From an uncultured Faecalibacterium sp. (lineage in GTDB: Bacteria; Bacillota; Clostridia; Oscillospirales; Acutalibacteraceae): DNA of 64,000 nucleotides. The DNA is taken from NCBI GenBank assembly GCA_964403085.1, contig CAYOEN010000002.1:7715-71714 (forward strand). The letters run 5' to 3'. Each line of letters opens with the position of its first letter. Positions within the stretch are counted from its first letter, which is position 1. Below the pieces are notes generated by a model. That model was not told the DNA's origin. It worked only from the letters and a program-made list of their open reading frames with translations, and did no database searches. Position numbers and translations under genes: made by a program. Of the stretch, positions 729 to 12,527 are shown in pieces.

Positions 729-848
729 GCCTTTGAGCTTATGAAGGGTGGAGAAGCTGCTTTGCTTTCTCTGCCTTTTTCATTGTTGCGTTTCACACGA
801 ATTAAAAACAGCGCTTGTCTGCTGCGTTAATGATTGGAGTTTTTAAAA

Positions 849-2153
849 ATGTCTGTTCTTGTCAGCAATGTCACCAAAAAGTCAATAGCCGACAAAAAAG
901 GCATTAAGCCCGGCGATGTCCTCGTTTCCGTAAATGCGCACGAAATCAATGATGTTCTTGACTATCGCTTTTACATTCAGGAAGAAAAACTGACTCTCGC
1001 TCTCGTTTCTAACGGAAAAGCAAAAAAAGTCAAGCTTCGTAAGAATGAGTATGACGATATCGGACTTGAGTTTGAAACCTACCTCATGGACAAGCAACAA
1101 CACTGCAAAAACAAGTGTGTCTTTTGTTTTATCGACCAACTTCCCGAGGGTATGCGCGAAACATTATATTTTAAAGACGATGACTCCCGTCTTTCGTTCC
1201 TTTTCGGAAACTACGTCACTCTTACAAATTTAACAGAGCACGATGTTCAGCGTCTTATTGATATGCACATAAGTCCCGTCAATGTTTCCGTTCACACCAT
1301 GAACCCGGTTCTCAGGGTCAAAATGATGAAAAATCCGCACGCGGGTGAGTGTCTTTCAATTTTAAAACGCCTTGCCGATGCGGATATAAAGCTGAACACA
1401 CAGCTGGTTCTTTGTCCCGGAATAAACGACGGCGAAGAGTTGCAATACAGTCTTGATGCGCTTGAAGAACTTTTCCCGGCTATTCAGAGCATTGCCGCCG
1501 TCCCGGTCGGACTCACAAAATTTCGCGAAGGATTACCGGAGCTTAAAGCGTATACTCCGGAAACAGCGAAAGCCGTTATTGATATTGTGGATTCCTTTGG
1601 TGAACGCTGCTTAAATAAATACGGAACGCGTATCGCTTTTTGCGCTGATGAATTCTATTTAAAAGCCGACCAACCGATTCCTCCCGATGATTATTACGAG
1701 GATTATCCGCAAATTGAAAACGGAGTCGGTTTATGGAGAAACCTTGAAACGGAGTTTGCGACGGCTCTTGAAAGCGCAGTTGCGGAAAATCGCGAAAAAA
1801 GGCGCGTTTCTTTGGCAACCGGTGTTGCGGCATATCCGCTTATCAAACGATTGGCGCAACTCGTTGAGTCCCAATATCCGTTTATCAAGGTGGATGTTTT
1901 TGAAATTAAAAACGACTTTTTCGGACACAGTATAAATGTTGCCGGTTTGATAACCGGGCGCGACCTGATTGCTCAATTGAAGGACAAAAATGTTGGTGAA
2001 ACTCTGATAATTCCGTCTGTCATGCTGCGCAGCGAGGGTGATATGTTTCTTGATGATGTCACTGTTGATGACGTTGAAGACGAACTCGGTGTTGAAATCA
2101 GAGTTGCCAAAAACGATGACGGATATGAATTACTTGAAAAAATTTTGATGTGA
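849..2153 (+). CDS. DUF512-type PDZ / radical-SAM-like protein
   Basis: PDZ-like N-terminus, Cys motif CKNKCVFC and a long C-terminal domain. This family commonly precedes der in Clostridia. GGAG lies about 9 nt before ATG 849; the track start 834 is TTG. Confidence 0.7.
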   Translation: MSVLVSNVTKKSIADKKGIKPGDVLVSVNAHEINDVLDYRFYIQEEKLTLALVSNGKAKKVKLRKNEYDDIGLEFETYLMDKQQHCKNKCVFCFIDQLPEGMRETLYFKDDDSRLSFLFGNYVTLTNLTEHDVQRLIDMHISPVNVSVHTMNPVLRVKMMKNPHAGECLSILKRLADADIKLNTQLVLCPGINDGEELQYSLDALEELFPAIQSIAAVPVGLTKFREGLPELKAYTPETAKAVIDIVDSFGERCLNKYGTRIAFCADEFYLKADQPIPPDDYYEDYPQIENGVGLWRNLETEFATALESAVAENREKRRVSLATGVAAYPLIKRLAQLVESQYPFIKVDVFEIKNDFFGHSINVAGLITGRDLIAQLKDKNVGETLIIPSVMLRSEGDMFLDDVTVDDVEDELGVEIRVAKNDDGYELLEKILM

Positions 2154-2178
2154 TATTATTTTAAAGGAGGGATCGACC

Positions 2179-3498
2179 ATGGCAAAACCGGTTGTTGCGA
2201 TTGTTGGTCGCCCAAACACAGGAAAAAGTACATTGTTCAACAAGCTTGTCGGCCAACGCCTTTCGATCGTTGACGATACTCCCGGTGTTACGAGGGATAG
2301 AATATTCGGCGATTGTGAATGGCTTTCACGCCATTTTCTTCTCGTTGACACGGGCGGAATTGAGCCCTATTCAAACGACATTATTTTAAAGCAGATGCGT
2401 CGTCAGGCACAACTTGCAATCGAAAGCGCAAACGTAATTATTCTTGTTTGTGATATACGTTCGGGCGTGGTTGCCACCGACAGCGAGGTTGCTTCAATGC
2501 TTCAACGCAGCGGAAAACCCGTGGTGCTTTGCGTCAATAAATGCGACGCAATAGGTGAGCTTCCGGCTGACTTTTATGAGTTTTATAATTTGGGACTCGG
2601 TGATCCTATCGGCGTTTCGGCGGTTCACGGTCACGGTACCGGCGATTTACTCGATGAAGTCATTAAATATCTTCCGCCATACAGCGAGGAAGAGGAAGAA
2701 AACGTTATCAGCGTTGCCGTGATCGGAAAGCCTAATGTCGGAAAATCTTCGCTCATAAACGCAATTTCAGGAGAAGAGCGCGCAATAGTTTCCGACATTG
2801 CAGGCACAACACGAGACGCTACGGACACATATCTTTCAAACGAATACGGCGACTTCGTTTTTATTGACACCGCCGGAATGCGCCGCAAGAGTCGCATTGA
2901 AGATCAGCTTGAAAAATACAGTATCATTCGGGCGAAAATGGCTGTTGAACGCGCCAATGTTTGCGTAATCATGATTGACGCTGTTGAAGGTTTTACCGAG
3001 CAGGACTCAAAGGTTGCGGGAATTGCGCACGAAATGGGAAAAGCCTGCATCGTTGCGGTCAACAAATGGGACGCTGTTGAAAAAGACGGCAGAACCATGG
3101 ATTCATACAGGAAAAAACTCATGAACGATTTTTCCTTTATGTCGTATGCGCCGATAATTTTTATTTCCGCAAAGACAGGACAACGCCTTGACAGACTTTT
3201 TGAACTTATTCGTTTTGTTGACGAACAAAACGCCATGCGTATTTCAACGGGTAAGCTCAATGACGTTCTTGCCGCTGCAACGGCGCGCGTTCAACCGCCG
3301 ACAGACAAGGGCAAGCGACTGAAAATTTATTATATGACGCAAGCTTCCACAAGACCGCCGACATTTATCTGCTTTGTCAATAAAGCCGAGCTGTTTCATT
3401 ATAGCTACCAGCGTTATATCGACAATCAAATTCGTGAAGTTTTCGGTCTCGAAGGCACACCAACAAGGTTTGTGATTCGCGAACGCGGTGGAAAATAA
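2179..3498 (+). CDS. der: ribosome-biogenesis GTPase Der (EngA)
   Basis: Two tandem GTPase domains with P-loops GRPNTGKST and GKPNVGKSS, DTGG/DTAG and NKCD/NKWD motifs, plus a KH-like C-terminus. Confidence 0.95.
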   Translation: MAKPVVAIVGRPNTGKSTLFNKLVGQRLSIVDDTPGVTRDRIFGDCEWLSRHFLLVDTGGIEPYSNDIILKQMRRQAQLAIESANVIILVCDIRSGVVATDSEVASMLQRSGKPVVLCVNKCDAIGELPADFYEFYNLGLGDPIGVSAVHGHGTGDLLDEVIKYLPPYSEEEEENVISVAVIGKPNVGKSSLINAISGEERAIVSDIAGTTRDATDTYLSNEYGDFVFIDTAGMRRKSRIEDQLEKYSIIRAKMAVERANVCVIMIDAVEGFTEQDSKVAGIAHEMGKACIVAVNKWDAVEKDGRTMDSYRKKLMNDFSFMSYAPIIFISAKTGQRLDRLFELIRFVDEQNAMRISTGKLNDVLAAATARVQPPTDKGKRLKIYYMTQASTRPPTFICFVNKAELFHYSYQRYIDNQIREVFGLEGTPTRFVIRERGGK

Positions 3499-3528: not shown

Positions 3529-3557
3529 TTGACAATTCTTCAGTCAGGTGCTACAAT
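3529..3557 (+). promoter_or_regulatory. sigma-A-type promoter of the B12-regulated operon
   Basis: TTGACA (3529-3534), 17-nt spacer, TACAAT (3552-3557), placed just upstream of the riboswitch. Confidence 0.6.
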
Positions 3558-3567
3558 TAAATTCAAT

Positions 3568-3657
3568 CAAAGCTCAGTGGGGAAATACCGGTGAAAATCC
3601 GGAGCAACCGCCATTGCCGTTATCAGCTTTTTGCTGTCAGTCGGAATGCCCGCTTTG
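3568..3657 (+). promoter_or_regulatory. cobalamin (B12) riboswitch aptamer
   Basis: Hallmark strings GGGGAAATACCGGTGAAAATCCGG (3579-3602) and B12-box-like GTCAGTCGGAATGCCCGC (3636-3653). Candidate P1 is CAAAGC/GCTTTG (3568-3573/3652-3657). Confidence 0.8.
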
Positions 3658-3716
3658 CTTTTTGCTTTTCGTATTCACTTTTGGGCAATTGGAAGAGTGA
3701 GCGGCCGTAGGTTACT

Positions 3717-3752
3717 GCGCCCTTTTTTTGCTCAAAAAGGGCGCTTATTTTT
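3717..3752 (+). terminator. riboswitch expression-platform intrinsic terminator
   Basis: Stem GCGCCCTTTT / AAAAGGGCGC followed by TTATTTTT, ending about a dozen nt before the first gene start. Confidence 0.75.
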
Positions 3753-3765
3753 ATGGGGTGATGAT

Positions 3766-5085
3766 TTGAAAAGATTTTTTTCCTTATTCTTCGCGTTTTG
3801 CTTGCTTGTAAGTTTCTGCTTCTTCGTGTCGGCAGACAACAGCTCACAGAAGTACATAACTTCAGCTCTCACACCAACTGATTCGGCAACTCTCAAATGG
3901 TCAAAAAAACTCGGTGGAGGCTTTGCTGCCTCGCCGACAGCTCCGCTTGTTGTCGGTGATACTCTGATAGTTGCTTCGGGAAAAACAATTTATAAGCTGA
4001 ATTCAAAAACAGGTGATGTTTTACAAAGCAACGAAATGCTCGGTTCTCTCGGGTATGCGGTTGTTGCTCCAACCTACGCCGAAAACAAAATTTTTATTCA
4101 GCTTAACGGTGGAAAGATACAGGCGTTTGATTTTGAAACTCTTGATTCACTGTGGCTTTATACTGATGCGCTTGGTGGTCAGGCGCTGTCTCCGATTGTC
4201 TGCGATGACGGCTATATTTATACCGGTTTTTGGAACGGTGAAGACGATAATGCAAACTTTGTCTGCCTGAGCACAAAGGACGAACAACCAAACAAGAAAA
4301 ACGAAAAAAAGAAAGCCAAATGGGTCTATCGAAGCAAAGGCGGTTTTTATTGGACCGAAGCGGCAGTTACAAAGGGATATGTAATTTTCGGTACCGATGA
4401 CGGGAACGATGGAACCGGCGCCGAGTCGCGCATCGTTTCGCTCAATAAAAAGAACGGCAAACTTTCTTCTTCGCTCAGAACAAAAGGGGATATTCGTTGC
4501 GCAGTGACCTATGATAAGGAGAACGGATTTTATTTCACGGCGAGCAAGTCGGGCTTTGTTTATCGCTTTAAATTCAATGAAGAAACAGGAGAGCTTCGCA
4601 ATCTGAAAAAATATAAAACCGGGGGCGAAGTCACGTCTTCACCCGTTGCACACAACGGACGAATATATTTTGCCTGTCAAAACGGAAAGAGCGGAAAGTT
4701 CGTTGTTGTGGAAGAAAAGACAATGAAAAAAATATATGATTGTCAGATGCTCGGTTATTCTCAGTCAACGCCTTTGATTTCGGTTGCGTATAAAGATGTT
4801 GTTTATGTTTACATGACCTACAACGAAAAGCCCGGAGGAATCACGGTCTTTAAAGATTCTTCCAATCAAACCGAAGCGATAAAAACGGAACTTTTTGAAC
4901 CTTCCGGCGACGCTTCTCAGTATTGTATTTGTTCCGTAACGGCGGACGAAAACGGCAATCTTTTCTATAAAAACGATTCGGGTACAATATTTGCTGTCGG
5001 AAAGAAAAGCAACTCGCTCTTAACGAAGATACTGAACATTCTTTTTCGAGCGATAATTCGTTTCGCTTCCGGGATAATATCATGA
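3766..5085 (+). CDS. secreted PQQ-like beta-propeller repeat protein
   Basis: A TTG start at 3766 gives signal peptide MKRFFSLFFAFCLLVSFCFFVSA. Repeated blade-like motifs are GKIQAFDFETLDSLWLY, GYVIFGTDDG, GFVYRFKF, GRIYFACQNG and GNLFYKNDSGTIFAV. The track ORF start 3631 runs through the riboswitch and is not credible. Confidence 0.7.
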   Translation: MKRFFSLFFAFCLLVSFCFFVSADNSSQKYITSALTPTDSATLKWSKKLGGGFAASPTAPLVVGDTLIVASGKTIYKLNSKTGDVLQSNEMLGSLGYAVVAPTYAENKIFIQLNGGKIQAFDFETLDSLWLYTDALGGQALSPIVCDDGYIYTGFWNGEDDNANFVCLSTKDEQPNKKNEKKKAKWVYRSKGGFYWTEAAVTKGYVIFGTDDGNDGTGAESRIVSLNKKNGKLSSSLRTKGDIRCAVTYDKENGFYFTASKSGFVYRFKFNEETGELRNLKKYKTGGEVTSSPVAHNGRIYFACQNGKSGKFVVVEEKTMKKIYDCQMLGYSQSTPLISVAYKDVVYVYMTYNEKPGGITVFKDSSNQTEAIKTELFEPSGDASQYCICSVTADENGNLFYKNDSGTIFAVGKKSNSLLTKILNILFRAIIRFASGIIS

Positions 5086-5954
5086 AAATCGGAGCACGGG
5101 GAATACACCCGTTTTCTGCTGCTGTTTTCTTTGCCGTTGTTTTTGTAATAACACTGCTAACATTGAACCCATATCTGCTCGCAATCAGCTTTTTGAGCGG
5201 CTTTATGTTTGATATTAATCTTCGGGAAAAAAAGGCAATCAAAGAACTATGTTGTCTTTCGGCGATAGCTGTCGTTATAGTGCTTTTTAATACGCTTTTT
5301 GCGCACTATGGTGTTACGGTTTTGTTTACTCTTAAACGCGGAAACAACATAACTCTCGAAGCTTTTGTTTGCGGCGCGGTTTATGCTGTTCGCTTTGTTT
5401 CAACAATGATTTGGCTTTCATGTTTCAATGAAGTTGTTGACGAAGAAAAGTTCCTTTTCCTTTTCGGACGTCTTTCGCCGAGGCTTGCGCTCGTTACGTC
5501 AATGGTGCTTCGATTTTTGCCGCTTGTGTCTCGTTACACTGCCGAAACGCAAAAGGCGTGTCGCGGGATCGGGTCGGACAGTTCTGTCGGTTCGATATAT
5601 GTTCGTTTGAAAAACGCAACACGAATAGTTTCAATAGTTATTTCAAGACTGCTTGAACACGCTGTTGACACAGCCAATTCAATGATGGCACGCGGCTATA
5701 CACTCAAGGGGAGAACGAGTTGCCGCGTCTATCCGTCAAGAATTATTGATGCGCTTCTGGTCAGCGTCTCAGGCCTCTCTGCTTTGCTCATTTTATCCCT
5801 TAACGACAGCGTTGCCGCGCAGTATAATCCGATTATAATTATCGCGCCCTTTTCTCTAAGGTGCGCCACCGTTTGCCTTGGTTTTACAGTGCTGTGCTTT
5901 TTGCCGCTTGCTTTTGATATAACGGAGAAAAAAATATGGTCGATTTCAAATTAG
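5082..5954 (+). CDS. ECF transporter transmembrane (T) component, CbiQ/EcfT family
   Basis: Polytopic membrane protein with the conserved Ala-Arg-Gly coupling motif (SMMARGY). Its ATGA start overlaps the upstream stop. Confidence 0.85.
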   Translation: MKIGARGIHPFSAAVFFAVVFVITLLTLNPYLLAISFLSGFMFDINLREKKAIKELCCLSAIAVVIVLFNTLFAHYGVTVLFTLKRGNNITLEAFVCGAVYAVRFVSTMIWLSCFNEVVDEEKFLFLFGRLSPRLALVTSMVLRFLPLVSRYTAETQKACRGIGSDSSVGSIYVRLKNATRIVSIVISRLLEHAVDTANSMMARGYTLKGRTSCRVYPSRIIDALLVSVSGLSALLILSLNDSVAAQYNPIIIIAPFSLRCATVCLGFTVLCFLPLAFDITEKKIWSISN

Positions 5955-7600
5955 AAAACTTTTCTTTTTCGTTTCCGAATGGGACGAGTGCACTCAAAAA
6001 CATTAATCTTGAAATAAATCGCGGAGAACTTGTTGTTGTTTGCGGTCGAAGCGGCAGCGGAAAGACAACGCTCCTTCGGCTTTTAAAGCCGCAACTCAAA
6101 CCACATGGAAAACAAAGCGGGTCGCTTTCGATCTTTCAAAAAGATGAAAGCGAAATCTCTCTTCGCGATTCCGCTTCGCTGATTGGATTTGTGATGCAAA
6201 ATCCGGAGCTTCAATGTGTAACGGATACCGTGCAGTCCGAGCTGTGTTTCGGACTTGAAAATCTCGGTTTTGACCGAAAGGCTGCTCAGTTAAGAGTGGC
6301 GGAAACGGCGGCTCTTTTTTCGCTTGAAAACCTTTTAGACAAAAAAACAGCCGAGCTGTCAGGCGGACAAAAACAATTTGTGAATCTCGCTTCGATTGTT
6401 GCGATGAATCCCAATGTTCTGTTGCTTGACGAACCTACTGCACAGCTCGATCCGGTTTCAGCTCAAAGACTCATTGACCTTGTGTGTATGCTTTGCCGTG
6501 AATACGGGGTTACCGTTATTATTTCAGAGCACCGACTGGAAAAGCTCGTTGCCGTTGCCGACCGACTCGTTGTTCTCGAAAACGGCAAAATCATAAACAA
6601 CAGCGCTCCGCGAGATGTGAGCTATGAAGTTATGAAAATGAATGAATTAGTGCGTTTGAGCTTGCCGTTTTATATGCGCCTTAATTATGAACTTGGGCTT
6701 TTTGAAAAAATGCCGACCGATATGAAATCCGGTCGTGCGCTTGTTTCAAATATTCTCAAAAGCGCAACCGCAGTTGAACCGTTTTTGTCACCGGAAAGCG
6801 AAAAAGCCGAATTGGCGGTCAACATTAAAAATCTGTATTATTCATATGATGCAAAAAACTACGTTTTAAAAGGGCTCGACCTTCAGATCAAGAAGGGGAG
6901 TTTCTTTGCTATACTCGGTTCGAACGGAGCGGGAAAAACAACTCTGCTCAATCTTATCGGCGGACTGCTCAAATCAAAAAGAGGGAAGCTTGAACTGTTT
7001 TCAAAAAGCATTTCAAAGTATTCGACGTCTGAGCTTTATAACGAAAACGTTGCCTTCCTCCAACAAAATTGTGAGTCGATTTTTGCGGGTCCAACCGTTC
7101 AAGAGGATTTTGAAAATATTTTAAGAAGCAGCGAATACACACGCAGCCAAATTGAAGAACGCATTAAAAGCGTCAGCTCTTTTTTCGAAATTAAGGAATT
7201 GCTTCTCTCTCATCCATATGATTTGAGCGGAGGCGAGTTGCAACGTTGTGCCCTTGCTGCTGTGATGTTGAAAAACGCGCGTCTTCTTTTGCTTGATGAA
7301 CCGACAAAAGGATTGGACGTTCTTTTCAAAAATCAACTTGCAACGCAGCTTCGCCGACTTTGTTCCGCCGGCACAACGGTAGTCATCGTTTCTCACGACA
7401 CCGAGTTTTGCGCAAAATACTGTGATGAATGTGCGCTGATTTTTGACGGCAGGGCTGTTTCTCAAGGCGTCACCCATGAGTTCTTTTCTAACAACTGTTT
7501 CTATACCACAGCTGCAAGCAAATTGATGCGGGGAATAGTCGATAATGTCGTTACCGAGGAAGAGGTGATTGAACTTTGCAAAAAGAGTATAAATGGTTAA
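5936..7600 (+). CDS. ECF transporter fused double ATPase (EcfA-EcfA' type)
   Basis: Two ABC cassettes with Walker A GRSGSGKTT and GSNGAGKTT, signatures LSGGQKQ and LSGGELQ, and Walker B LLLDEPT twice. Confidence 0.9.
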   Translation: MVDFKLENFSFSFPNGTSALKNINLEINRGELVVVCGRSGSGKTTLLRLLKPQLKPHGKQSGSLSIFQKDESEISLRDSASLIGFVMQNPELQCVTDTVQSELCFGLENLGFDRKAAQLRVAETAALFSLENLLDKKTAELSGGQKQFVNLASIVAMNPNVLLLDEPTAQLDPVSAQRLIDLVCMLCREYGVTVIISEHRLEKLVAVADRLVVLENGKIINNSAPRDVSYEVMKMNELVRLSLPFYMRLNYELGLFEKMPTDMKSGRALVSNILKSATAVEPFLSPESEKAELAVNIKNLYYSYDAKNYVLKGLDLQIKKGSFFAILGSNGAGKTTLLNLIGGLLKSKRGKLELFSKSISKYSTSELYNENVAFLQQNCESIFAGPTVQEDFENILRSSEYTRSQIEERIKSVSSFFEIKELLLSHPYDLSGGELQRCALAAVMLKNARLLLLDEPTKGLDVLFKNQLATQLRRLCSAGTTVVIVSHDTEFCAKYCDECALIFDGRAVSQGVTHEFFSNNCFYTTAASKLMRGIVDNVVTEEEVIELCKKSING

Positions 7601-8301
7601 AAGTTGTTTCTCCGATCTCTCTTTTTGTCCTTGCCCCGATTTTCGCCTTTATTTGTTGCAAGGTTTTCGACCCGAAATATTACTACATTTCAGCAACTGT
7701 TATAATTGTTCTTGCAATTTTGCCGTTTTTTGTAATGTTTGAAAAACGAAAGCTTAGCACAATAGAACTTGTCACTGTCGCCGTTATGGTGGCGGTTTGC
7801 AGCGGTTCACGACTCGCTTTTTCGTTTCTTCCACAGTTCAAACCGATGTGTGCGCTTGTTATCATTGCAGCATCCGCTTTCGGCGAAAACATCGGCTTTA
7901 TCGTTGGCGCAATGTCTGTGTTTGTTTCAAATTTCGCTTTTGGCCAGGGTGCGTTTACACCGTTTCAAATGCTCGGAATGGGGCTTGTTGCGTTTTTGTG
8001 CGGTGCTTTGTTTCACAACAAAATTCTCGGCAAAAACCGCTTGGCAGTCAGCGTTATCGGCACCGTCCTTACGTTCTTCGTGTATGGCGTAATCGTTGAC
8101 AGCGCCTCTGTTTTCATGATGACAACGGAGTATACATTTGAAAAAATCATTGGTATTTACGCTTCGGGAGTCGGTTTTAATTTGATTCATGCGATTACAA
8201 CCGGAATTGTTTTGTTCCTGTTTTACAAACCTATGATAAACAAACTTTCGCGTCTTAACGTTAAATACGGAATATTTGCTTTTTCCGCTGATTGGAGGTA
8301 A
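7576..8301 (+). CDS. polytopic membrane protein, candidate ECF substrate-capture (S) component
   Basis: 241 aa and about 6-7 hydrophobic helices with no soluble domain. It overlaps the ATPase gene end inside the ECF operon. I could not assign a family by eye. Confidence 0.5.
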   Translation: MQKEYKWLKVVSPISLFVLAPIFAFICCKVFDPKYYYISATVIIVLAILPFFVMFEKRKLSTIELVTVAVMVAVCSGSRLAFSFLPQFKPMCALVIIAASAFGENIGFIVGAMSVFVSNFAFGQGAFTPFQMLGMGLVAFLCGALFHNKILGKNRLAVSVIGTVLTFFVYGVIVDSASVFMMTTEYTFEKIIGIYASGVGFNLIHAITTGIVLFLFYKPMINKLSRLNVKYGIFAFSADWR

Positions 8302-8305
8302 AACT

Positions 8306-9025
8306 ATGAAAAGAATTTTTTCGCTATCAATGAGTGTGCTTTTAATACTTTTTTTGACCGCTTGCTCCGGTTTTAAAAGTGAACCCGAAACAACGCTTTC
8401 GACAATCGGCTCATCGTTACAATATGAGAGTTCCAAAAGCGAGGGTTCAACCACAAATTCAACACCGACAACCTATTCGTCAACGACCGCAACGAAGCCC
8501 AGCGCAACTCAGAACATTAAAACCTCGGAAACGACTTCGGAAGTTTTAATGAGTTCAACAGCGCAAAAGACTGAAACAAACGTTGAAGAGACGACCGAAA
8601 GCTCTTCAATAACCTGTTATGTCACGATTGATTGCACAAAAATTCAGGAAAATTTTGAAGAATTGAACAAAAGCAAAAGGAGTTTTGTTCCTTCAAACGG
8701 CTACATATTAAAAGATGCCGCTGTTGAACTCAAAGAGAACGAAAGCGCGTTTGATGCACTCAAAAAAGCTTGCGCTGAATATTCATGTACCGATAACTGC
8801 AAATACTGCCAAAAGGACGGCATTCAGCTCGAATATTCTTATACGCCGGCGTATCATTCTTATTATGTTGAAGGAATTCATCAGCTTTATGAAAAGGATT
8901 GCGGCGATCTTTCAGGTTGGCTGTTTTGCGTTAACGACGCTCTTGCCGAAAGCGCTTCCAGTTCTTATTATCCTCAAAACGGCGACAAAATTATGTTCAC
9001 TTACACTGTTTCAATGGACTTTTGA
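8306..9025 (+). CDS. lipoprotein with transcobalamin-like DUF4430 domain
   Basis: ATG 8306 follows GGAGG. Lipobox in MKRIFSLSMSVLLILFLTAC, then a Ser/Thr-rich linker. C-terminal domain carries GDLSGWLFCVND...NGDKIMFTYT, as in DUF4430. Confidence 0.65.
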   Translation: MKRIFSLSMSVLLILFLTACSGFKSEPETTLSTIGSSLQYESSKSEGSTTNSTPTTYSSTTATKPSATQNIKTSETTSEVLMSSTAQKTETNVEETTESSSITCYVTIDCTKIQENFEELNKSKRSFVPSNGYILKDAAVELKENESAFDALKKACAEYSCTDNCKYCQKDGIQLEYSYTPAYHSYYVEGIHQLYEKDCGDLSGWLFCVNDALAESASSSYYPQNGDKIMFTYTVSMDF

Positions 9026-9063: not shown

Positions 9064-9867
9064 ATGAAAACACTCAAAAAAACAACGGCATTGCTTCTTT
9101 CTCTCTTGATGCTTGTATCCTGCTTTGCAGCTTCGGTATCAGCGGCGGGAAAGATAACAGTCAAACTTCGAATCGAAGGCATCAACGCCTGTCAGTATTA
9201 CAGCTATGTAACTGTTGACAGCGGTTCAACGGTACTTGACGTTGTTAAGCAGGCGGACTCAATCGATTCAACCCTTACCGTCACGGTGGTTGAAAGCAAG
9301 TACGGTGATTACATTTCGGAAATCAATGGCGAGAAAGAAAAAACCTTTAAAGGTTGGGACGGCTGGCTTTACAGAGTAAACAATGCCGAACCCGAAGTTG
9401 GTGTTGCGGCTTACACCGTTTCCGATTCCGACAGCATTGTTGTTTATTACGGCGATCCTTACGGCGTCGGAATGCAATATCCGGAAATCAACGTTGACGC
9501 TCTTTCTGACGGAAAAATTTCGTTTACGAGCCTTGATACCGTATATGGTGATAACTCCGTTCCCATAACAACGCGCAATTCCGTTACCGGCTACACTCTT
9601 ACATGGGGATATAGCAATTCAAAGACTGTTAAGGTGACTCCGGACGAAAACGGCGTTTGCACCATTGATGAGCGGTATCTCACAAATGAAGCGCACAGCG
9701 TTCAAATTGAGCGTTATGCACCCAACGGTTGTCCGACCGTTTTAAGGCTTGAACCGGATTTTTATGTTGGCGAAAAAGTTACCGAAAACTTTATTTATGA
9801 GCTTTTCACTACGCTCAAAAACTTCTTTAATAAGATAATCAACTTCTTCAAGTCACTCTTTAACTGA
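9064..9867 (+). CDS. secreted DUF4430 domain protein with extra C-terminal domain
   Basis: Signal peptide ending VSA-AGK. DUF4430-like core GWDGWLYRVNN...SDSIVVYYGD, then an additional ~120-aa domain and an amphipathic C-terminal tail. Confidence 0.65.
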   Translation: MKTLKKTTALLLSLLMLVSCFAASVSAAGKITVKLRIEGINACQYYSYVTVDSGSTVLDVVKQADSIDSTLTVTVVESKYGDYISEINGEKEKTFKGWDGWLYRVNNAEPEVGVAAYTVSDSDSIVVYYGDPYGVGMQYPEINVDALSDGKISFTSLDTVYGDNSVPITTRNSVTGYTLTWGYSNSKTVKVTPDENGVCTIDERYLTNEAHSVQIERYAPNGCPTVLRLEPDFYVGEKVTENFIYELFTTLKNFFNKIINFFKSLFN

Positions 9868-9928: not shown

Positions 9929-9968
9929 AAACGGCTTGTGTATCCCCTTTATACACGAGCCGTTTTTT
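9929..9968 (+). terminator. intrinsic terminator ending the B12 operon
   Basis: Stem AACGGCTTGTGTAT / ATACACGAGCCGTT followed by a T6 run. Confidence 0.8.
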
Positions 9969-9998
9969 AAATTAACAAATAAATCTATCGCAAATATG

Positions 9999-10076: not shown

Positions 10077-11489
10077 ATGCAAAAGAAAAAAATCTCTTTG
10101 CGCCTTTGGTTCAACATCATTCTTTTCGGTTTGATGGGTCAGATCGCCTGGAATATGGAGAATATGTACTTTAACACATTTCTCTATAACAACATTTATT
10201 CAAATGGCGCTTCGCAAGCCGCCGTCAATTCCGCAATTCCGTACACAACGGCAATCAGCCTTATGGTTGCGCTTAGCGCAATTACTGCCGTTGTAACGAC
10301 TTTTATCATGGGTACGCTCAGTGACAGATTGAACAAACGAAAGGTTTTCATTTCTATCGGATATATAATTTGGGGACTCATCACCGCTTCTTTCGGGTTG
10401 ATTTCTCGCGACAACGTTGCTTCGTTGTTCCATCTTTCCGATGAGGTTCAAATTCTTACCGCTACCGTATGGACCGTAATCGTTATGGACTGTGTCATGA
10501 CATTTATGGGTTCAACAAGCAACGACTCCGCCTTCAACGCTTGGGTCACAGATATCACCGAGCCCGAAAACCGTCCTGCTGTTGAAACTGTTTTTGCCGC
10601 TTTACCAGTTATAGCCATGGGGCTTGTTATTGCTTTCGGTTCGCTCGCTCAGGCGGGAACTGTCACATATACACTTTTCTTCGGTGTGCTCGGCATGATC
10701 GTTGCCGTTTGCGGTGTTGTCGGTCTTTTCACTCTTGAAGAACCGAAACACAAAATTCAACAAAACACAAATTCCAATTATTGGTCGGATCTCTTTTACG
10801 GTTTCAGACCTTCTGTTATAAAAGAGAACGCGCGTCTTTATCTCGTTCTTTTGGCAAGCTGCATTTTCGCCGTTGCAACTCAGGTTTATTTCCCATATCT
10901 TTTGATCTATCTTCAATATGTTGTTTTGCCGATGGCGGGCGATAACCTTCTTTCTGTTCCCGTTATAATAAGCGCAATTGCTTCCGTCGCGATGATGATC
11001 GGGGGAATCGTTGCAATTTTGAAGCTTAACAAAAAACTCAGCAGGGGAACACTGCTTGTTGTTGCGCTTCTGTGCTCTGTAATCGGTCTTTTCATGTTGG
11101 GCTTTTCCAAAAATATTGTAATGCTTCTCATTTCCGCAGCGCCTACGGTCGTCGGCTATGCCACTCAGGGTATTTTGATCAATGCCACTATCAGAGACTT
11201 CACGCCGGAATCTAAGGCGGGTCAGTTCCAGGGGGTAAGAATGATTTTCGGTGTTCTCATCCCGATGGTTCTCGGACCTGTCACCGGCGCACTTGCCATT
11301 GAGCGTTCCGCTGTTACATATGTTGATGAATACGGAACGATGCAAACCGTTCCGACGGAACTCATGTTTACCTTCGCCGCAATTGTTTCGATCTTGGCCG
11401 TCATTCCTCTTGCGATTCTCATCAAGAAAGGCATTCTTTCAAAACCGGCCGGAGCAGAGAAAGAAGATGAATTGACAGAAACGGCGTAA
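10077..11489 (+). CDS. MFS transporter
   Basis: 470 aa, about 12 hydrophobic helices, and an MFS-like loop GTLSDRLNKRK after TM2. Confidence 0.8.
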   Translation: MQKKKISLRLWFNIILFGLMGQIAWNMENMYFNTFLYNNIYSNGASQAAVNSAIPYTTAISLMVALSAITAVVTTFIMGTLSDRLNKRKVFISIGYIIWGLITASFGLISRDNVASLFHLSDEVQILTATVWTVIVMDCVMTFMGSTSNDSAFNAWVTDITEPENRPAVETVFAALPVIAMGLVIAFGSLAQAGTVTYTLFFGVLGMIVAVCGVVGLFTLEEPKHKIQQNTNSNYWSDLFYGFRPSVIKENARLYLVLLASCIFAVATQVYFPYLLIYLQYVVLPMAGDNLLSVPVIISAIASVAMMIGGIVAILKLNKKLSRGTLLVVALLCSVIGLFMLGFSKNIVMLLISAAPTVVGYATQGILINATIRDFTPESKAGQFQGVRMIFGVLIPMVLGPVTGALAIERSAVTYVDEYGTMQTVPTELMFTFAAIVSILAVIPLAILIKKGILSKPAGAEKEDELTETA

Positions 11490-11510
11490 GAAAAGGAGCG
11501 TAAAACAGCT

Positions 11511-12527
11511 ATGAAGGGACAAACGAAGCTGAAGCTTCTGTATATTAAAGATTACCTTGAAAAATACAGCGATGAAAATCATCCTGTCAGCGCGGAAATT
11601 TTGCAACAGATGCTTGAGCGTAACGGAATCGTTTGTGAACGCAAGTCAATTTACAGCGACGTTCAAGCCCTCAGAGATTACGGAATGGAGATTTTTCGCG
11701 TCAGGGCACCCGGAAACGGTTATTATCTCGCTTCCAGAGAATTTGAAGAGCCGCAGGTTCGACTTCTGGTTGACGCCGTTCAGGCAGCGAGCTTTATTAC
11801 CGAAAAAAAGACTAAGGAACTTGTCAAAAAAATCGCTTCGCTTTGCAGCGAAAGCGAGGGCAGGCAGTTGACCCGTCAGGTATATATCGAAAATCGTGTC
11901 AAGTGCTCCAACGAAGAGATATACTATAGCATTGACGTTTTGAGCCGCGCAATCAAAGCGAGGAAAAAAGTTGCGTTTGTTTATTGCAAACGTGTTATTG
12001 CCGAAGATACAGGAGCAATAAAAATCAACGAACGACGCCATATTGTCAGTCCGTATGCACTCATTTGGTCCAACGATCATTATTATCTCGTTGCCAACAA
12101 TCAAAAATATGATAATTTGATGCATACTCGTATTGACAGAATGAAACGAGTTGAAATGCTCAATGAAACCATCAGACCGTTTGGCGAAGTTTCAACATAT
12201 CGCAGCTTTTTTGATTCGGCGGACTACGTCAGTAAGCTTTTCAATATGTTCAGTGGAACGATTCAGTCGCTTGATATTCTTTGTGACAACTCGATTCTCG
12301 AAGAAATTCTTGACCGTTTCGGCACGAATACGCTGATAACAAAAGATATAGACGAAAACCGTTTTCGCCTCAGAACGAAGCTCGCGGTCAGTGAAGGTCT
12401 CATTTCGTGGCTGATGCAATTCGGCGAAAAACTCGAGGTTCTCGAGCCGCTCTCTTTGCGCACTCAGATCAAAGAAAAAGCGAAAGAAATTCTCGGGGTA
12501 TATAAAGACGAAAGTGTTTTTGGCTGA
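11511..12527 (+). CDS. HTH-WYL domain transcriptional regulator
   Basis: N-terminal winged HTH, central WYL-domain region SPYALIWSNDHYYLVANN, and a WCX-like C-terminal domain. It lies 21 nt after the MFS gene. Confidence 0.85.
   Translation: MKGQTKLKLLYIKDYLEKYSDENHPVSAEILQQMLERNGIVCERKSIYSDVQALRDYGMEIFRVRAPGNGYYLASREFEEPQVRLLVDAVQAASFITEKKTKELVKKIASLCSESEGRQLTRQVYIENRVKCSNEEIYYSIDVLSRAIKARKKVAFVYCKRVIAEDTGAIKINERRHIVSPYALIWSNDHYYLVANNQKYDNLMHTRIDRMKRVEMLNETIRPFGEVSTYRSFFDSADYVSKLFNMFSGTIQSLDILCDNSILEEILDRFGTNTLITKDIDENRFRLRTKLAVSEGLISWLMQFGEKLEVLEPLSLRTQIKEKAKEILGVYKDESVFG

Follow-up and report, generated by a model that had tools for sequence, protein, structure and literature searches.

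Gut microbes compete for vitamin B12 and related corrinoids, which shapes their communities, and the capture machinery has been worked out only for Bacteroides, with BtuG, BtuH, BtuJ, BtuK and BtuB as its components. The beta-propeller protein BtuG2 is reported to take B12 from intrinsic factor, and BtuK1, a second Bacteroides propeller binder, binds cyanocobalamin (CNCbl) on an exposed face of its propeller, consistent with hand-off. In Lactobacillus delbrueckii, vitamin B12 is imported by ECF-CbrT (PDB 6FNP), an energy-coupling factor (ECF) transporter. According to a 2026 review, extracellular cobamide capture in Gram-positive Firmicutes 'remains entirely uncharacterized'. In this report, we analyze an operon of an uncultured Faecalibacterium sp. 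(Acutalibacteraceae), in which a gene for a secreted beta-propeller, preceded by a cobalamin riboswitch, is followed by the genes for an ECF transporter and two DUF4430 proteins. The operon is located in a stretch of 64,000 nucleotides (contig CAYOEN010000002.1, positions 7,715 to 71,714 of the forward strand), which is termed the window, and coordinates are those of the window unless another locus is named. The propeller, with a probability of roughly 0.6, belongs to a system for the acquisition of corrinoids, as an accessory component outside the cell and close to the membrane.

Burroughs et al. (2007; PMC1796856), in the passages that deal with these proteins, report the fusion of an SLBB domain to a beta-propeller in a Clostridium and describe SLBB proteins in low-GC Gram-positives, which have signal peptides, occur as two paralogues per operon and have CbiO and CbiQ as neighbours. 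The hosts are described as lacking B12 biosynthesis, and it is proposed in these passages that auxotrophs scavenge B12 with these proteins, that the propeller and other fused modules are cell-surface tethers, and that some archaeal SLBB proteins may scavenge another metabolite. The 'transcobalamin-like SLBB' domain of these passages is DUF4430, the domain that contacts B12 at the C-terminus of transcobalamin and of intrinsic factor. As far as these passages describe them, the SLBB surface proteins and the operon in the window are the same system, which is therefore already known to comparative genomics. The propeller is treated in these passages as a generic tethering module, with no experiments, and a stand-alone propeller gene, riboswitch linkage, a conserved propeller subfamily and a CbrT-like S component do not appear in them. 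A literature search gave no paper that characterizes the system, singles out the propeller, or joins an ECF transporter, a cobalamin riboswitch and a propeller, and a literature search on DUF4430 gave nothing functional in bacteria.

A role of the propeller in corrinoid acquisition is well supported by sequence comparison, because the propeller gene is linked to a riboswitch, has ECF and DUF4430 genes as neighbours and is fused to DUF4430 in some relatives, and because the S component seems CbrT-like and DUF4430 belongs to the transcobalamin family. The precedent of Bacteroides, in which two unrelated propeller families bind a corrinoid on one face, also supports this role. The six genes of the operon, for the propeller, EcfT, a fused EcfA-A', the S component and two DUF4430 proteins, overlap or are closely spaced and are translationally coupled, with the propeller gene first and a terminator with a 15-bp stem (9929-9965) after the last. 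EcfT, EcfA/A' and the S component are all encoded, and the ECF gene set is therefore complete. When the S component is compared with the sequences of PDB, 6FNP_A (CbrT) is the sole match, which covers the full length but is weak (E = 1.5e-4, 24.9 bits). The second DUF4430 protein has a signal peptide, and its best PDB match is the beta domain of transcobalamin-2, again weak (E = 0.14). The covarying aptamer and the Pfam and NCBIfam matches of the ECF proteins bear out the proposal, made in a preliminary description of this locus, that the propeller gene leads a B12-riboswitch-controlled ECF operon. That description overlooked the two DUF4430/SLBB genes with which the operon ends and the fusions of DUF4430 to the propeller at other loci, which together are the strongest functional clue to the propeller, and it also left BtuK out of account.

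A scan of one genome per species shows that at least 338 species have a relative of the propeller, and 80 loci from different species (designated by L and a number) were fetched. The relatives are encoded mostly in metagenome-assembled genomes of Acutalibacteraceae, Oscillospiraceae, Lachnospiraceae and Christensenellaceae, and also in Eubacterium barkeri, Proteiniclasticum ruminis and Syntrophaceticus schinkii. The context of the propeller was surveyed by searching all open reading frames (ORFs) of the 80 loci with tblastn and with iterated hidden Markov models of the window proteins. Wherever the flanking sequence suffices, the propeller is flanked by ECF T/A/S genes, DUF4430 genes or both. 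In the close relatives the order is riboswitch, propeller, EcfT, EcfAA', S component, DUF4430 and DUF4430. In L016, L020 and L030, the riboswitch and propeller are directly followed by the DUF4430 genes and the ECF genes are not adjacent, and L074 has one riboswitch for the ECF genes and another for the propeller-DUF4430 genes. In more distant Clostridia, surface proteins of 800-3,500 amino acid residues (aa) include the propeller as a domain, and they adjoin ECF genes in the order T-AA'-S-T2 and genes for DUF4430 proteins of 400-570 aa. DUF4430 and the propeller are united in a single polypeptide at about 18 loci, and Pfam confirms the fusion in L047, L071 and L050, the last of which encodes a 1,585-aa protein of Proteiniclasticum ruminis with DUF4430, Cadherin-like and PQQ_2 domains. 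The arrangement of these loci shows the propeller to be an apparently obligate partner of SLBB proteins, which is always co-encoded with them, is often fused to them and sometimes forms its own riboswitch unit with them without ECF genes.

The association of the propeller orthologues with B12 regulons is very strong, as judged from their leaders and neighbours. The riboswitch is located upstream of the propeller gene, on the same strand, at nearly all of the 40 close loci. Because the alignment of short-type and canonical riboswitches with MAFFT is poor, the distant loci were examined by Rfam scans instead, and 19 of the 34 distant loci have a canonical RF00174 riboswitch on the gene strand at the gathering score, with up to 114 bits and sometimes in two or three copies. 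Riboswitch linkage of the orthologues, which the preliminary description had named as a check of its proposal, is thus found in both groups of loci, with ECF or DUF4430 neighbours wherever the flanking sequence suffices.

The element in the leader of the window operon is a real short-type cobalamin riboswitch, which, as judged from its conservation and covariation rather than from the Rfam gathering score, is predicted to act through transcription termination. A local search with RF00174 by E-value gives 28.1 bits (gathering score, 31.5) and an E-value of 2.4e-5, and only 7 nt of the window riboswitch correspond to the 62 model positions of the P6-extension region. When five close relatives (L002, L008, L016, L024 and L036) are scanned at the gathering score, no riboswitch match is obtained. 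A motif scan detects the core GGGAA..GGTGAAA.TCC on the gene strand upstream of the propeller at many related loci, and compensatory changes can be seen in their P4 stem. This short variant has the conserved segments GCAACCGCCATTRCCGT and AGTCGGAATGCC, of which the latter is B12-box-like, and lacks the P6 extension. Sixteen leaders align cleanly, and RNAalifold recovers five helices from them. The covariance model R1, built from these 16 leaders, gives 98.5 bits in the window, a single plus-strand match of more than 73 bits upstream of the propeller at 35 loci, and weaker matches at about 10 others. When 30 leaders are compared, 96% of the cells are in standard pairs, and 65 cells are compensatory, as compared with 22 +/- 3.8 in shuffled alignments (0 of 500 shuffles reach 65). 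The covariation score is 0.396, as compared with 0.10 or less for structures in which the pairing partners are moved by 1-3 columns. The aptamer is followed by an intrinsic terminator (3717-3744) with a U tail, 14 nt before the propeller start codon, which is conserved in relatives. Alignment of the leaders of five syntenic relatives shows that the promoter, aptamer, terminator hairpin and GGTG of the ribosome-binding site are all kept. Class II cobalamin aptamers, which lack the P6 extension, tend to favour methyl- or hydroxocobalamin over adenosylcobalamin.

The mechanically called ORF of the propeller gene extends from 3631 to 5085, and the only gene call that is public for this sequence has 476 aa and starts at 3655. 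Both of these starts are located inside the aptamer, and both frames run through the leader terminator. Therefore, these longer calls are wrong and the 439-aa protein that starts with TTG is the correct one. This start codon (3766-3768) is located 5 nt 3' of GGGGTGA and is aligned also in L005-L007 in the leader alignment. The homologues are 430-450 aa long, and their N-termini are located at the same position and have an equivalent signal peptide. The TGA stop codon shares an ATGA overlap with the ATG of the EcfT gene. These results agree with the preliminary description, according to which the gene starts at this TTG with a signal peptide and the supplied ORF wrongly fuses the riboswitch to the gene. 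Because the propeller gene is misannotated and its riboswitch scores below the Rfam threshold, automated reconstructions of B12 regulons will miss this system.

The protein is, according to its model and family matches, a secreted eight-bladed PQQ/BamB-like propeller. Its N-terminus, MKRFFSLFFAFCLLVSFCFFVSA followed by DNS, has, by inspection, the n/h/c layout of a signal peptide for signal peptidase I (SPase I), and it ends in VSA before DNS and has no lipobox. Translation from 3766 yields every blade-like motif that had been quoted in the preliminary description. The protein is a member of the PQQ-like/BamB-like family by its match to Pfam PQQ_2 (PF13360; 39.8 bits, cut-off 27.6), with Beta-prop_ACSF4 below its Pfam cut-off. 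The AlphaFold2 (AF2) model, built on an alignment of 37 homologues (A1), has a mean predicted local distance difference test score (pLDDT) of 89.6 and a predicted template modeling score (pTM) of 0.85. In this model, residues 2-17 form a helix, which is followed by a disordered linker of low confidence (18-27), and 32 strands form eight four-stranded blades, the eighth of which is closed by the N-terminal strand 42-48. When the model is compared with PDB by Foldseek, BamB, the designed eight-blade Cake8, tetrathionate hydrolase and Bacillus YxaL are at the top of the best 50 of 1,761 significant matches, with E-values down to 3.5e-17. The structure prediction suggested in the preliminary description as a check thus gives a propeller fold closest to PQQ/BamB-like folds, and the number of blades, given there as seven to eight, is eight.

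The features of the operon are summarized in Table 1.

Table 1. Positions of the leader elements, genes and protein regions of the propeller operon in the window
Feature	Coordinates	Strand	Basis or details
Sigma-70-type promoter: TTGACA, 17-nt spacer, TG-extended TACAAT	3529..3557	+	11 of 12 consensus matches; kept in L005-L009
Short-type cobalamin riboswitch aptamer	3571..3657	+	Own model R1; Rfam match spans 3529-3671
Leader intrinsic terminator (expression platform)	3717..3752	+	11-bp stem with 6 GC pairs, then TTATTTTTAT
Ribosome-binding site GGGGTGA	3755..3761	+	Sequence reading; GGTG kept in leader alignment
Propeller gene	3766..5085	+	TTG start, 439 aa, TGA stop at 5083-5085
Signal peptide, aa 1-23, predicted cleavage between VSA and DNS	3766..3834	+	Sequence inspection, AF2 helix, homologue peptides
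Eight-bladed PQQ/BamB-like beta-propeller domain, aa ~41-415	3886..5010	+	PQQ_2, AF2 strands, Foldseek
C-terminal amphipathic helix tail, aa 417-439	5014..5082	+	AF2 helix 418-438; hydrophobic moment 1.6
EcfT (CbiQ-type transmembrane component)	5082..5954	+	PF02361, 25.9 bits (cut-off 25)
Fused EcfA-EcfA' double ATPase	5936..7600	+	TIGR04520, 346.7 bits, and TIGR04521, 337.8 bits, both above cut-offs
ECF S component, putatively CbrT-like	7576..8301	+	PF07155, 34.9 bits (cut-off 26.7)
DUF4430/SLBB lipoprotein: lipobox LTAC, Ser/Thr-rich linker, C-terminal SLBB	8306..9025	+	PF14478, 39.2 bits (cut-off 23.8)
Secreted DUF4430/SLBB protein with extra C-terminal domain and amphipathic tail	9064..9867	+	PF14478, 49.6 bits (cut-off 23.8)
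Operon terminator	9929..9975	+	15-bp stem, then T-rich tail

Among 79 propeller domains, which are as little as 40% identical overall, identity reaches 90% or more at about 70 residues, and the motifs QAF, WxYxD, YTGFWxxE, GGxY, GDxR, TYN..PGG and YKNDSG are among these. Of the 119 positions in the D-A and B-C loops, on the face conventionally taken as the 'top', 38 are conserved, as compared with 11 among 74 for the opposite loops (Fisher p = 0.01). The conserved side chains of the top face are D134, Q139, F155, W156, E159, Y195, D211, D242, R244, K261, T290, Q333, Y352, N353, N403, D404 and S405. In BtuG2, a polar-plus-aromatic surface contacts the corrin amides, and by this analogy the top face of the window propeller seems to be of the same kind. 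The propeller, which leads a B12-repressed uptake operon of gut Clostridia and is paired with transcobalamin-like domains, is a strong candidate for a Gram-positive B12-capture component, and may itself bind corrinoids. Two cysteine residues, C167 (4264-4266) and C387 (4924-4926), are also at least 90% conserved across the 79 domains and could form a disulfide bond or, by analogy with BtuM, ligate cobalt. A Lys-rich insertion, KDEQPNKKNEKKKAK (4273-4320; aa 170-185), is located in the C-D loop of blade 3; its residues D172, E180, K182 and A184 are conserved throughout the family, and it is the only strongly conserved element of the 'bottom' face.

The C-terminal amphipathic helices, of about 22 aa, are alike in the propeller and the second DUF4430 protein (9790-9864), as exemplified by SFFQKIIATIKNIFAKIVAMFKK and SFFDGIIAFFKMIFEAITSLFA. 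When 2,676 ORFs are searched with a profile of the propeller tail, it prefers the extreme C-termini of the family of the second DUF4430 protein, with E-values from 7e-4 to about 1, and also matches one other operon ORF (L038, 6977-7915). This common tail may be a membrane-surface anchor or a docking motif of both proteins.

These features suggest how the operon might work. When corrinoid is plentiful, the riboswitch and terminator should stop transcription of the six-gene unit. When it is scarce, the cell would make the ECF importer, consisting of EcfT, EcfA-A' and the CbrT-like S component, together with three surface proteins. One SLBB protein would be anchored by its lipid, and the propeller and the other SLBB protein by their amphipathic C-terminal helices. 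The three surface proteins would then constitute a capture module that hands environmental corrinoids to the S component. The propeller would act with its conserved top face, where Asp, Asn, Gln, Glu, Arg, Lys and aromatic residues abound, and this face would either bind the corrinoid, as BtuG and BtuK1 do, or close over a corrinoid held by the SLBB protein. In a more elaborate and distinctly unlikely version of this arrangement, which is offered tentatively, the propeller would stand in for the alpha/alpha-toroid domain that transcobalamin and intrinsic factor have, so that its face and SLBB/DUF4430 would form a two-part corrinoid clamp, and this clamp, the second SLBB protein and the shared membrane-anchoring tails would constitute a Gram-positive relay that feeds the ECF transporter, convergent with BtuG/H/J/K of Bacteroides. 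The idea of a clamp is encouraged by the frequent fusion of DUF4430 to the propeller and by a search for the alpha/alpha toroid, which in transcobalamin completes the binding site and which is recognizable in none of the 25 SLBB proteins co-encoded with the propeller.

Several results weigh against a role of the propeller in corrinoid acquisition. No cobalamin riboswitch is detected in the window at the Rfam gathering score, and 15 of the 34 distant loci likewise have none at this score, although the upstream sequence available is short at several of them. Neither sequences nor profiles link the propeller to BtuG or BtuK, and its closest folds according to Foldseek, BamB and YxaL, are non-enzymatic scaffolds and not small-molecule binders. 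The larger relatives carry the propeller amid generic surface modules (Cadherin-like, Big_2, SLH and CWB2). The top face was assigned from the strand order and topology of the AF2 model and not from coordinates, its enrichment decreases to 21 versus 6 conserved positions (p = 0.09) when Gly and Pro are excluded, and such a conserved face suits a protein-protein interface equally well. The main rival explanation is that the propeller is a pure scaffold or tether, which makes no contact with corrinoids but either keeps the SLBB proteins in place at the membrane or the ECF complex, in a BamB-like manner, or binds cell-wall polysaccharide and so retains the capture proteins on the cell surface. 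The top structural matches, the embedding of relatives in large surface proteins with the modules just mentioned, the tethering role proposed for the propeller and other SLBB-fused modules in the cited passages of PMC1796856, and the tail common to the propeller and the second DUF4430 protein, which suggests co-anchoring, all favour this explanation. Nevertheless, it is somewhat unlikely, because the stand-alone propeller already has a putative anchor in its tail helix, because a domain of about 390 aa that conserves about 70 residues to 90% or more, in sequences with 40% identity, is under more constraint than a generic tether, because the propeller is kept even beside dedicated wall-binding modules (SLH, CWB2 and dockerin), and because corrinoid-binding propellers have precedent.

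An enzymatic role or a role outside B12 metabolism is unlikely. An extracellular enzyme or releasing factor, which would process corrinoids or strip them from carriers of the host or the diet, such as haptocorrin or intrinsic factor, before SLBB capture, would be in keeping with the invariant acidic and basic residues on one face, with the B12 acquisition from intrinsic factor reported for BtuG2, and with the presence of tetrathionate hydrolase and quinoprotein dehydrogenases, which share the PQQ-like fold, among the Foldseek matches. However, the sequence matches to dehydrogenases are marginal (E = 0.1-2), no catalytic motif is recognized in the propeller, and its domain of about 390 aa is much smaller than the matched quinoprotein dehydrogenase chains of roughly 570-680 aa. 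Production of pyrroloquinoline quinone (PQQ) is also not known from anaerobic Clostridia. Such an activity is therefore improbable. Still less probable, and indeed hardly credible, is that some other metabolite is taken up by the propeller and the ECF transporter and that the link to the riboswitch is incidental or misidentified. The score of the window riboswitch below the Rfam gathering score and the statement in the same passages of PMC1796856 that a metabolite other than B12 may be scavenged by some SLBB proteins of archaea would allow it. However, the riboswitch shows strong covariation and conservation, 19 distant loci have a canonical RF00174 riboswitch, of up to 114 bits, in the equivalent place, the S component seems CbrT-like, and DUF4430 is a transcobalamin domain family.

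Further features of the relatives and of the flanking region are as follows. When 1.84 billion representative proteins are searched exhaustively with a profile of the propeller, 1,126 clusters are obtained at E-values of 1e-30 or less, and multi-domain proteins predominate among the best 150. In 41 sampled relatives, a Cadherin-like domain is found in 26 and a DUF4430 detectable by Pfam in 7, and a few have SLH, CWB2, Big_2 or fn3. The search for the toroid in 25 DUF4430 proteins revealed only a FecR-like domain, which is N-terminal in 7 of them, from distant loci and of 400-530 aa (L050 4499-5977, L047 4174-5397 and five others). The type-I dockerin domain in a DUF4430 protein of Eubacterium barkeri (L044 5489-6430) suggests that a B12-binding module is displayed through a cohesin. 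Two EcfT-like genes, in the unusual order T-AA'-S-T2, are located beside multi-domain propeller proteins in L042, L047, L049-L052, L054-L056, L059-L062, L064, L065, L068, L072 and L073. Two or three cobalamin riboswitches per locus are found in L047 (2766-2954, 3712-3914 and 10240-10466), L052 (2795-2962 and 4413-4526) and L074 (4253-4339 and 7696-7782), and at such loci the DUF4430 genes, the propeller protein and the ECF genes are under separate control. In the window, the genes upstream of the operon (834-3498) are unrelated and encode a PDZ and radical-SAM-like DUF512 protein and the GTPase Der/EngA, which is about 92% identical in syntenic relatives. The downstream genes (10077-12527), for a major facilitator superfamily (MFS) transporter and a WYL/WCX regulator, are also unrelated.

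This locus and its relatives in at least 338 species provide concrete candidates for corrinoid capture by Gram-positive bacteria, namely a distinct and strongly conserved propeller subfamily, the transcobalamin-like domains with which it is paired, a putatively CbrT-like ECF importer and the corrinoid riboswitches that control them. If the propeller binds corrinoids or clamps them with SLBB domains, propellers would have been recruited independently for B12 capture a third time, and this would explain how Clostridia compete with Bacteroides and host intrinsic factor. The system would also serve as a bacterial model of a transcobalamin beta domain that works without a toroid partner.

The window propeller, according to sequence comparison, is a member of neither BtuG nor BtuK and is a variant among the surface accessory proteins of corrinoid transporters. 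Membership in the BtuG family (Pfam DUF5074) was rejected, because the match has 25.3 bits (cut-off, 27.2; BtuG2, 73.6) and covers only aa 287-415 (blades 6-8). Homology to BtuG was also rejected, because hhalign of A1 against an alignment of eight BtuG sequences from an eLife supplement gives a probability of 37.7%, over blades 1-3. These two registers are inconsistent, which points to a generic similarity of blades. A search of PDB by sequence profile at E-values of 10 or less gave only BamB, Cake, YxaL and dehydrogenases, so that membership in BtuK was rejected as well. A PQQ-dependent quinoprotein dehydrogenase was rejected, because the matches to methanol and alcohol dehydrogenases of 577-677 aa are marginal and the domain is far smaller. 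Because the propeller is homologous to neither BtuG nor BtuK, any common function would be convergent, as the preliminary description had assumed for BtuG.

BtuG (BT1954; PDB 3DSM/8BMZ) resembles the window protein in that it is a surface-exported beta-propeller encoded in corrinoid-riboswitch-controlled B12 transport loci, and both families include fusions to a second B12-binding domain, BtuGH in Bacteroides and DUF4430-propeller in the window family. However, BtuG has seven blades, is a lipoprotein with a Bacteroidetes export signal and works with the TonB-dependent BtuB, whereas the window protein has eight blades in the AF2 model, an SPase-I-type signal peptide, a C-terminal helix and an ECF transporter as its partner. 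The binding of corrinoid by BtuG has been measured and is femtomolar, whereas the window propeller is a candidate binder known from its sequence. BtuK1 and BtuK2 (PDB 9S6C and 4R5O) are lipoproteins of Bacteroides B12 loci with PKD and a seven-bladed propeller, as compared with the eight blades of the window propeller. The combination of an Ig-like module and a propeller in BtuK is paralleled by that of Cadherin-like and propeller domains in 26 of the 41 sampled relatives, whereas the window protein lacks an Ig-like module. BamB and YxaL, which are eight-bladed, PQQ-like and without cofactor, belong to the same PQQ_2 family and are the best fold matches, with target-normalized TM-scores of 0.70-0.85, but their sequence identity to the window protein is about 15% and their genomic context is wholly different. 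BamB is a lipoprotein of the Gram-negative outer-membrane BAM complex, and the NCBIfam BamB models give the window protein 45.6 bits, far below their cut-off of 285. The transporter resembles ECF-CbrT in its ECF architecture and in its S component, which is distantly similar to CbrT, and its substrates are probably cobalamin and cobinamide. CbrT of L. delbrueckii was studied with a separate ECF module, of the type in which the module is common to several S components, and with no extracellular accessory protein in the assays. In contrast, the window transporter has a dedicated module, in which EcfA and EcfA' are fused, and three exported proteins are co-transcribed with it.

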